A stretch of 64,000 nucleotides of DNA from Staphylococcus phage sv_nwjns2 (PQ819472.1), one strand, 5' to 3'; positions 54,640-57,286 are shown, counted from the stretch's first letter. The notes: generated by a model from the letters alone, not told the origin. Numbers and translations: made by a program.

Positions 54640-55503
54640 ATGGTTAACTCAATGTTTGGAGGGGACTTAGACCCTTATGAAAAATCATTAAACTATGAAT
54701 ATCCTTATCATCCTAGTGGTAATCCTAAACATATAGACGTAAGTGAGATAGATAATTTAACATTAGCTGATTATGGATGGTCACCGGATGCAGTTAAAGC
54801 ATATATGTTCGGTATTGTAGTTCAAAATCCTGATACAGGACAGCCTATGGGTGATGAGTTTTATAACCATATATTAGAAAGAGCGGTAGGTAAAGCTGAA
54901 AGAGCATTAGATATATCTATACTACCTGACACTCAACATGAGATGAGAGATTATCATGAGACAGAGTTTAATAGTTATATGTTTGTACATGCTTACAGAA
55001 AACCTATATTACAGGTAGAGAACTTACAGCTACAGTTTAATGGTAGACCGATATATAAATACCCTGCTAACTGGTGGAAAGTAGAGCATCTAGCAGGACA
55101 TGTTCAATTATTCCCTACAGCACTTATGCAAACAGGACAATCAATGTCATATGATGCGGTATTTAATGGATACCCTCAATTAGCAGGTGTATACCCGCCA
55201 TCAGGGGCAACATTTGCACCTCAAATGATACGATTAGAATATGTATCAGGTATGCTTCCACGTAAAAAAGCAGGAAGAAATAAACCTTGGGAAATGCCTC
55301 CTGAGTTAGAACAGTTAGTTATAAAATATGCATTGAAAGAAATATACCAAGTATGGGGTAACTTAATCATTGGTGCCGGTATTGCTAATAAAACATTAGA
55401 AGTAGACGGTATTACAGAGACAATAGGTACCACTCAATCAGCTATGTATGGTGGAGCTAATAGGATTATAAGGAGGGTTAGAAAATGGAAAAACCGTATA
55501 TGA
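54640..55503 (+). CDS. connector-region protein A', a fusion variant (287 aa)
   Basis: N-terminal 274 aa collinear with the full gene, then a 77-bp deletion shifts the frame to ...ANRIIRRVRKWKNRI, overlapping the next start. Confidence 0.55.
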   Translation: MVNSMFGGDLDPYEKSLNYEYPYHPSGNPKHIDVSEIDNLTLADYGWSPDAVKAYMFGIVVQNPDTGQPMGDEFYNHILERAVGKAERALDISILPDTQHEMRDYHETEFNSYMFVHAYRKPILQVENLQLQFNGRPIYKYPANWWKVEHLAGHVQLFPTALMQTGQSMSYDAVFNGYPQLAGVYPPSGATFAPQMIRLEYVSGMLPRKKAGRNKPWEMPPELEQLVIKYALKEIYQVWGNLIIGAGIANKTLEVDGITETIGTTQSAMYGGANRIIRRVRKWKNRI

Positions 55504-55886
55504 TAGGAGCCAACTCTAACCCTAATGTTATTAATAAGTCAACAACATATACTACTACAACACAAGTAGATGAACAAGATAAACCTAAGTATACTACTAG
55601 ACTAGAGTTTGATACGATTGACATGATTAGGTTTATTAATGACCGAGGTATAAAAGTATTATGGGAAGAAGCATATTTCTGTCCTTGCCTTAATCCTGAT
55701 ACAGGACATCCTAGAGTCGATTGCCCTAGATGTCATGGTAAAGGGATTGCATATCTACCTCCTAAAGAGACTATAATGGCAATACAGTCTCAAGAGAAAG
55801 GAACTAACCAGTTAGATATAGGTATACTAGATACAGGAACTGCAATAGGTACCACTCAATTAGAAAAGAGGATTTCCTATAGTTAA
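55485..55886 (+). pseudogene. truncated 5' copy of gene B (first 131 codons, then YS-stop at the duplication junction)
   Basis: 131 aa identical to the start of 56408-57286, then terminates at the junction. Confidence 0.7.
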
Positions 55887-55971
55887 TGGTAGACCGATAT
55901 ATAAATACCCTGCTAACTGGTGGAAAGTAGAGCATCTAGCAGGACATGTTCAATTATTCCCTACAGCACTT

Positions 55972-56394
55972 ATGCAAACAGGACAATCAATGTCATATGA
56001 TGCGGTATTTAATGGATACCCTCAATTAGCAGGTGTATACCCGCCATCAGGGGCAACATTTGCACCTCAAATGATACGATTAGAATATGTATCAGGTATG
56101 CTTCCACGTAAAAAAGCAGGAAGAAATAAACCTTGGGAAATGCCTCCTGAGTTAGAACAGTTAGTTATAAAATATGCATTGAAAGAAATATACCAAGTAT
56201 GGGGTAACTTAATCATTGGTGCCGGTATTGCTAATAAAACATTAGAAGTAGACGGTATTACAGAGACAATAGGTACCACTCAATCAGCTATGTATGGTGG
56301 AGCTAGTGCACAGATACTTCAAATAAATGAAGATATAAAAGAACTATTAGATGGTTTAAGAGCTTACTTTGGATATAATATGATAGGATTATAA
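55972..56394 (+). pseudogene. 3' fragment of gene A (C-terminal 140 aa with the native end ...LRAYFGYNMIGL)
   Basis: identical to the A' residues QTGQSMSYD...AMYGGA, then the native C-terminus; no RBS before its first ATG. Confidence 0.6.
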
Positions 56395-56407
56395 GGAGGG
56401 TTAGAAA

Positions 56408-57286
56408 ATGGAAAAACCGTATATGATAGGAGCCAACTCTAACCCTAATGTTATTAATAAGTCAACAACATATACTACTACAACACAAGTAGATGAACAA
56501 GATAAACCTAAGTATACTACTAGACTAGAGTTTGATACGATTGACATGATTAGGTTTATTAATGACCGAGGTATAAAAGTATTATGGGAAGAAGCATATT
56601 TCTGTCCTTGCCTTAATCCTGATACAGGACATCCTAGAGTCGATTGCCCTAGATGTCATGGTAAAGGGATTGCATATCTACCTCCTAAAGAGACTATAAT
56701 GGCAATACAGTCTCAAGAGAAAGGAACTAACCAGTTAGATATAGGTATACTAGATACAGGAACTGCAATAGGTACCACTCAATTAGAAAAGAGGATTTCC
56801 TATAGAGACAGGTTTACTGTTCCTGAGGTATTGATGCCTCAACAAATGATTTATTTTGTGAATAAAGATAGAATTAGAAAAGGTATACCTCTATACTACG
56901 ATGTAAAAGAAGTAACTTATATAGCCACTCAAGATGGTACAGTCTATGAAGAAGATTATGAAATTAAGAATAATAGATTGTATTTAAATGAAAAATATGA
57001 GAATCATACAGTAACTTTAAAGATACTTATGACTTTAAGATATGTAGTATCAGATATACTAAAAGAAAGTCGTTACCAATATACTAAGTTTAATCAACCT
57101 AAATCAAAATTTGAAAACTTACCTCAAAAATTACTTCTTAAAAGGGAAGATGTTATTGTACTACAAGACCCTTATAAAGTTAATGATGGTATAGAAGAAG
57201 ACCTAGAAATTCAAGTAGATGACCCTAAGGCTTCGGCATCTAACCCTAGTAATTTAGGTGGATTCTTCGGAGGTGCATTTAAATAA
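56408..57286 (+). CDS. connector-region protein B with a CxxC...CxxC zinc-ribbon (292 aa), intact copy
   Basis: RBS AAGGAGGG; CPCLNPDTGHPRVDCPRCHG. Confidence 0.65.
   Translation: MEKPYMIGANSNPNVINKSTTYTTTTQVDEQDKPKYTTRLEFDTIDMIRFINDRGIKVLWEEAYFCPCLNPDTGHPRVDCPRCHGKGIAYLPPKETIMAIQSQEKGTNQLDIGILDTGTAIGTTQLEKRISYRDRFTVPEVLMPQQMIYFVNKDRIRKGIPLYYDVKEVTYIATQDGTVYEEDYEIKNNRLYLNEKYENHTVTLKILMTLRYVVSDILKESRYQYTKFNQPKSKFENLPQKLLLKREDVIVLQDPYKVNDGIEEDLEIQVDDPKASASNPSNLGGFFGGAFK

Follow-up and report, generated by a model that had tools for sequence, protein, structure and literature searches.

Spontaneous tandem duplications occur in large lytic phage genomes, as is familiar from the classical genetics of T4 and lambda. 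Such duplications can be head-to-tail repeats of about 1 kb whose copies are identical; they keep one intact copy of each gene, and nothing in their origin would call for arms of round-number length or a centred gap the size of an assembler's k-mer.

Repeats in deposited phage genomes can also be produced in silico. Specifically, SPAdes assembly of phage genomes that are circularly permuted has been reported to yield contigs with 77-bp identical ends, which the authors trimmed by hand (PMC9409062), and in a re-oriented short-read phage assembly an internal repeat of 79 bp, the size of a k-mer, was recognised as an artefact by Sanger sequencing and long reads (PMC10438801). The usual error in such cases is a simple duplication or loss of 77 nt. 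The locus described here, which lies in the neck module of a staphylococcal phage, shares features with both kinds of repeat. The neck itself has been characterized in phage 812, where the adaptor is a dodecamer of gp96 and the stopper a hexamer of gp97, with gp99, the tail terminator, coming next (PDB 8Q01; PMC12886913).

The sequence analysed is a stretch of 64 kb from Staphylococcus phage sv_nwjns2 (PQ819472.1), hereafter the window. The window belongs to Kayvirus (Herelleviridae, Twortvirinae), as the initial annotation had proposed, and its closest match in the phage collection, which does not include the record of the window itself, is Stab21 (99.9% identity locally, 98.5% over 25 kb). 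Two neighbouring genes, A and B, are of concern. The wild-type product of gene A (Stab21 g099, 302 aa) matches the 'Adaptor protein' of PDB 8Q01 (chain b, residues 1-302, E 2.7e-210); g099 is encoded by DNA identical to the window once the repeat described below is removed, and the corresponding ORF of the window as written, A', spans residues 1-273 only. The product of gene B (56408-57286) matches chain S of the same structure over residues 1-292 (E 2.6e-199). Judged by these full-length matches, gene A is the neck adaptor, homologous to phage 812 gp96 and Stab21 g099, gene B is the neck stopper, homologous to phage 812 gp97, and the label 'tail fiber protein' attached to A in PHROGs and RefSeq is a misnomer. 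Further downstream, an ORF at 57925-58761 matches Pfam SP10_terminator, the tail terminator. The initial annotation had spoken of capsid-to-sheath connector genes, which is right because A and B are neck adaptor and stopper with the tail terminator downstream. When de-duplicated, the window resembles the neck of phage 812 and of Kayvirus in encoding proteins of 302 and 292 aa in the same order, each with a full-length match; as written, in contrast, it encodes a truncated adaptor, a stopper stub, an adaptor 3' fragment and only then an intact stopper.

This departure stems from a segment that is present twice, head to tail, at 55037-55882 (846 nt) and 55883-56805 (923 nt), with 0 mismatches between the copies in a repeat search, a base-by-base comparison and a self-BLAST of the window (Table 1). 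Copy 1 lacks 77 nt matching 56306-56382, so that the shared sequence consists of two blocks of 423 nt, here termed U and D, and the single-occurrence 77-mer is termed K. Two perfect 423-nt matches cannot be the product of chance. The coordinates and lengths (846 + 923) given for the duplication in the initial annotation proved exact by all three comparisons, as did its placement of the 77-nt gap. The outer boundaries of the repeat are sharp, the copies differing from the first base outside, and direct comparison detected no microhomology, not even one base, at either the duplication junction CCTATAG/TTAATGG or the deletion junction GGAGCTA/ATAGGATT. No other large repeat exists in the 64-kb window, the runner-up in the self-BLAST being 135 nt at 88%. 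Tandem Repeats Finder gave no report at 55037-56805; its longest period is 500, and it is therefore blind to this repeat.

Table 1. Segments, junctions and open reading frames of the duplicated adaptor-stopper region, in window coordinates.
Feature	Position	Strand	Description
A', neck adaptor gene	54640-55503	+	ORF list; 287 aa against 302; native residues 1-273, then 14-aa frameshifted tail NRIIRRVRKWKNRI
U, copy 1	55037-55459	+	423 nt, adaptor nt 398-820; 100% identical to 55883-56305
U/D junction	55459-55460	.	GGAGCTA/ATAGGATT; 77-mer K absent; proposed over-trimmed contig-end join
D, copy 1	55460-55882	+	423 nt: last 12 nt of adaptor gene, RBS spacer and stopper nt 1-398; 100% identical to 56383-56805
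B', 5' stopper stub	55485-55886	+	ORF list; native RBS; 132 native codons, Ser and a junction-made TAA; 133 aa
D/U duplication junction	55882-55883	.	CCTATAG/TTAATGG; without microhomology
U, copy 2	55883-56305	+	Adaptor nt 398-820; 5' 397 nt of the gene absent
A'', adaptor C-terminal 140 aa	55972-56394	+	ORF list; starts at internal Met; no upstream Shine-Dalgarno sequence
K, single-occurrence 77-mer	56306-56382	+	Adaptor nt 821-897; putative terminal overlap (SPAdes, k=77) of the original contig
D, copy 2	56383-56805	+	100% identical to 55460-55882
B, intact stopper gene	56408-57286	+	Phage 812 gp97 homologue, 292 aa; match to PDB 8Q01 chain S, 1-292

The consequences for the adaptor are severe. 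The layout as written holds no intact adaptor gene, because the 77-nt gap hits the one adaptor copy with its own 5' end: native residues 274-302, 29 in all, are gone from A' and the frameshifted tail of 14 aa is gained, and no entry in the window ORF list joins the adaptor N-terminus (54640-) to the C-terminal 29 residues. The four ORFs of the initial annotation (54640-55503, 55485-55886, 55972-56394 and 56408-57286) recur unchanged in the ORF list. Its description of A as truncated with a frameshifted tail is sound, the counts of 28 codons lost and 13 residues gained giving way to 29 and 14; similarly, the 5' stub of B is present and comprises 132 native codons plus one new one (133 aa) where 131 codons had been counted. 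The 3' fragment of A had been described as RBS-less, in agreement with the lack of a Shine-Dalgarno sequence ahead of it, and the statement that no copy of A has both native termini is borne out by the ORF list and the Stab21 alignment alike.

The missing residues belong to a part of the protein that is widely retained. In 29 of 30 records drawn from along the ranked list of 755 adaptor matches, the alignment reaches residue 295-302, and at least 80% of the protein is covered in 752 of the 755, which span phages of Staphylococcus, Listeria, Enterococcus, Bacillus and Lactobacillus; the PHROG profile likewise covers the adaptor through its C-terminal end. As far as these alignments indicate, the adaptor C-terminus is conserved across Herelleviridae. 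The 29 lost residues come directly after the DNA-contacting loop at 265-272. A plaque-forming majority genotype with the layout of the window is unlikely, because it would have no intact copy of this conserved adaptor and would make a 133-aa stopper stub from a native RBS.

Comparison with relatives yields a uniform picture. The stretch from A to B is identical to Stab21 g099-g100 at 1801 of 1801 positions bar one gap of 846 columns, and when 55037-55882 is left out, a single colinear HSP with Stab21 starts at 31 kb and continues to the end of the window, no base differing within about 2.7 kb to the left or right of the repeat. The idea that two phages had been fused there in a chimeric assembly was considered and rejected, the identity to Stab21 being unchanged at the junctions and free of differences over the same ~2.7 kb on each side. 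For the interval 54300-57400, the best 40 of 236 covering Kayvirus records all span exactly 2,255 nt (= 3,101 - 846). An 80-nt probe across the D/U junction is spanned by 0 of 252 matching phage records, none of which covers more than 50% of it, and an 80-nt probe across the U/D junction splits into two aligned pieces over a span of 157 nt in each listed Kayvirus record, from which it follows that these relatives contain K. Neither junction, then, occurs in the ~250 Kayvirus records. This is the comparison with related Kayvirus genomes that had been called for at the outset, and its outcome is the single-copy layout that had been predicted, with one A, 302 aa long and with the C-terminus ...LRAYFGYNMIGL, and B after it.

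Searches beyond the phage collection were less informative. Exact 36-mers of both junctions had 0 matches in IMG/VR, GTDB genomes and JGI metagenomes; a wild-type control 36-mer was also without a match in IMG/VR, and for this reason these scans are given no weight and only the phage collection is regarded as informative. An exact-protein look-up found A' (287 aa) and B' (133 aa) to be absent from a collection of 15 billion proteins, where six window-specific proteins encoded in the terminal-repeat region are missing too. The 140-aa A'' is on record in two short ENA contigs. These were rejected as independent support for the junctions: they derive from a different Kayvirus, have a normal upstream adaptor with a TGG>TGA change, and contain no junction.

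The breakpoints obey a simple arithmetic. The local order is P-U-K-D-S in relatives and P-U-D-U-K-D-S in the window, where U, K and D measure 423, 77 and 423 nt. The repeat unit is thus 423 + 77 + 423 with the missing 77-mer exactly centred, U+K and K+D are each 500 nt, 923 equals 2x500-77 and 846 equals 2x500-2x77, and the breakpoints fall at 0, 423, 500 and 923 of the unit, round offsets of the kind that software leaves. By our own post hoc estimate, the probability that a random deletion of 77 nt within a 923-nt unit is exactly centred is 1/847; under a natural event, the length of 77 nt and the arms of 500 nt would be further coincidences, again counted post hoc. A separate observation concerns a 21-nt near-identical repeat, CAATAGGTACCACTCAATYAG, which occurs in both the adaptor and the stopper gene, 499 nt apart, and lies 18-19 nt upstream of two breakpoints. 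This position could hint at a biological event such as a template switch or recombination at the repeat; the landing sites have no homology to it, and its placement was judged coincidental.

One further feature of the record bears upon its history. Base 1 of the window aligns with base 1 of Stab21 and of Metroid, the physical left end of the long terminal repeat. The window thus begins at a physical genome end, and the contig must therefore have been re-oriented after assembly, with its original ends inside the record.

Taken together, these data suggest that the repeat is very probably a joining error made in silico between two 500-nt contig ends, when a circularly assembled contig was closed and re-oriented, and not a feature of the phage DNA. 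The elements of this explanation that can be read directly from the sequences are the geometry, the identity of the copies, the absence of the junctions in relatives, the re-orientation and the loss of the intact adaptor; the use of SPAdes (k=77), the 500-nt end pieces and the order of the editing steps are deduced, the first two from the numbers alone. The numerical argument is itself post hoc. U-K and K-D resemble SPAdes contig ends because a circularly assembling genome leaves its contig with the same terminal k-mer at the start and at the end, k being 77 in SPAdes with reads of about 150 nt. They would accordingly represent the last and first 500 nt of the SPAdes contig of a circularly assembling genome, with K as the common 77-mer, and the original contig would be predicted to begin and end with GTGCACAGATACTTCAAATAAATGAAGATATAAAAGAACTATTAGATGGTTTAAGAGCTTACTTTGGATATAATATG. 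The U/D junction would be a closure made after K had been trimmed off both ends, that is, by over-trimming, and U-K-D would be the correct closure. The D/U junction may then have arisen when two pieces, both carrying a pad of 500-77 = 423 nt past the join, were concatenated with their pads kept, such that the piece running 423 nt past the bad join came to butt against the piece starting 423 nt before the good one. Rotation of the genome to the left long terminal repeat would finally have placed the former contig ends inside the record, at 55.0-56.8 kb.

Similar to the published SPAdes overlap cases (PMC9409062, PMC10438801), the window displays a copy length difference of 77 nt, identical copies, a rotated record and an anomaly found in no relative. 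It differs from them in that a bad join and a good join stand next to one another with 423-nt flanks, a layout which needs an added step of padding or concatenation with 500-nt contig ends. Two editing errors are the minimum, namely an over-trim and a pad left in place. No single standard step among those tried (self-concatenation, 500-nt padding, single or double k-mer trimming) gives exactly P-U-D-U-K-D-S, and over-trimming combined with untrimmed 423-nt pads does yield it. Should the mis-join explanation be correct, the true genome should contain a single adaptor gene (302 aa) with a single stopper gene (292 aa) after it, and would be recovered by deleting 55037-55882.

Biological explanations fare less well against the same evidence. 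It is improbable that a genuine 923-bp tandem duplication is present in the phage stock, in the majority or in a sub-population, with the 77-nt gap alone being an assembly error. Such a clean arrangement, P-UKD-UKD-S, would be viable, keeping an intact adaptor in copy 1 and an intact stopper in copy 2 and adding only the 133-aa stopper stub, in line with the expectation that tandem duplication by itself leaves every gene with an intact copy; the zero divergence between copies would suit a recent event, and a gap of 77 nt suits a k-mer-sized software error. That reading nevertheless leaves the unit length of 2x500-77 and the centred, k-mer-sized gap unexplained, and overlap errors in a k=77 graph would be expected at the edges of the unit, not in its middle. 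In addition, it would require a D/U junction formed without microhomology and absent from all ~250 Kayvirus records. The window also parts from the T4 and lambda duplications in that those retain one intact copy of every gene and the window has no intact adaptor. That the layout exists physically in the stock exactly as written, as a Kayvirus lineage or a defective sub-population with a fresh 0.85-kb duplication in the neck module, is improbable as well; it would mean that an adaptor lacking the conserved C-terminal 29 residues is tolerated, that an adaptor is put together from A' and the 140-aa A'', or that a wild-type helper is needed.

Harder still to credit is the proposal that duplication and 77-nt deletion are both real and constitute the sequenced genotype, whether through decay of the neck module or as a defective genome with a helper. 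The sequence as given does contain both changes, and truncated or interrupted adaptor annotations exist in relatives such as KSAP7. Set against this, the family-conserved 29 residues have been removed from the only adaptor copy with its own 5' end, a plaque-forming majority would be without a functional essential neck protein, the 423/77/423 pattern and the 500-nt arithmetic would be pure coincidence, and neither the junctions in matching phage records nor A' and B' in the 15-billion-protein collection are on record. Decay would moreover be expected in the redundant fragment and not in the working copy; here the damage sits in the adaptor copy that is not redundant, which leaves decay of a spare copy unsupported, and the gene duplication and decay put forward in the initial annotation finds no support on this account. 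Of the three readings offered there, assembly expansion is the one favoured by the 423/77/423 geometry, the re-orientation and the lost adaptor, and neither duplication with decay nor a defective sub-population is upheld. A last explanation would make the extra 846 nt a mobile element or intron, inserted as in other genes of Twortvirinae. In Silviavirus, the adaptor gene is interrupted after codon ~240 by ~520 nt without an ORF, and in KSAP7 and CIFT_MFB_MRSA21, as in the window, the deposited adaptor ORF is broken near its 3' third. There, however, foreign non-coding DNA separates two exons that jointly encode a full-length protein, whereas in the window the added bases repeat the flanks and 77 coding nt are lost from the start-bearing copy. 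The additional sequence is wholly adaptor and stopper at 100% identity with nothing foreign in it, the only Rfam matches in the window are four tRNAs, and an insertion of this type is next to inconceivable.

The repeat is thus, on the comparisons assembled here, most likely no real feature of the phage, and the record needs correcting. Users would otherwise take over a shortened adaptor, two ORFs that are spurious and 846 surplus bases within a structural module that is essential, with effects on annotation, therapy dossiers, comparative genomics and structural work. A k-mer length coupled with round-number arms provides a numerical fingerprint by which closure errors in re-oriented phage assemblies may be flagged without access to reads. 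Were the layout real after all, it would reveal either an unexpected tolerance of the adaptor to C-terminal truncation or a defective genome that propagates.

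In their wild-type layout, that is without the extra 846-nt copy, the adjacent neck genes encoding the adaptor and the stopper each carry one copy of a 21-nt direct repeat, CAATAGGTACCACTCAATYAG; the two copies are identical at 20 of 21 positions, encode IGTTQ, and lie 499 nt apart. The same adaptor/stopper repeat is present in the related phage Stab21, and it is unlikely that such a repeat would arise by chance within 2 kb. Positions of this and the other features discussed here are collected in the table.

Positions of repeats, tRNA genes, interrupted adaptor genes and divergent stretches
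Feature	Sequence	Position	Strand	Remarks
21-nt direct repeat	window	56267-56287 and 56766-56786; further copies 55421-55441 and 55843-55863		repeat family D3
tRNA genes Met, Trp, Phe, Asp (n=4)	window	17267-17338 and 39290-39521	minus	Infernal + ARAGORN
Direct repeat pair, ~135 nt	window	40994-41126 and 41184-41315		88% identity
Strongest divergence from Stab21	window	8800-11700 and 29500-31200
Interrupted adaptor gene	KSAP7, LC492751 (comparison sequence L006)	601-2030
Interrupted adaptor gene	CIFT_MFB_MRSA21, PV426864 (comparison sequence L007)	1501-2247

In PHROG and RefSeq annotation, the adaptor is labeled 'tail fiber protein' in phrog_772 and many records, and the stopper is called 'capsid protein' or 'virion structural protein' in many records. 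The solved neck of phage 812 shows all of these labels to be wrong. Additionally, two short ENA metagenome contigs from another Kayvirus (L004 and L005) carry a TGG>TGA change within the adaptor gene (AACTGATGG), as a result of which the gene caller begins a 140-aa product at an internal Met; the change is either a nonsense variant or a sequencing error.

Among Silviavirus records, the adaptor reading frame breaks past about codon 240 (...IYQIWG) in both KSAP7 and CIFT_MFB_MRSA21, each of which is annotated with a 249-aa CDS only. In KSAP7, an insertion of approximately 520 nt that lacks a long open reading frame is followed by a putative second exon, the product of which reads GNLIIGAGIANK...MIGI. 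The interruption looks like an unannotated intron, but a search against Rfam returned no family at E<=0.01.

Elsewhere in the window, Infernal and ARAGORN agree on four tRNA genes (Met, Trp, Phe, and Asp), all located on the minus strand. In the Stab21 record their homologues are annotated as plus-strand genes, probably through a strand error in that annotation. Immediately beyond the tRNA cluster, a non-coding stretch holds the ~135-nt repeat pair, which is likewise found in Stab21. The window differs most from Stab21 in the right part and border of the terminal repeat, and over some 1.7 kb near 30 kb. These divergent stretches comprise gaps, blocks of 88-92% identity, and segments that are absent or additional, and include the place occupied in Stab21 by an HNH homing endonuclease. 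This pattern points to the mosaicism typical of Kayvirus.
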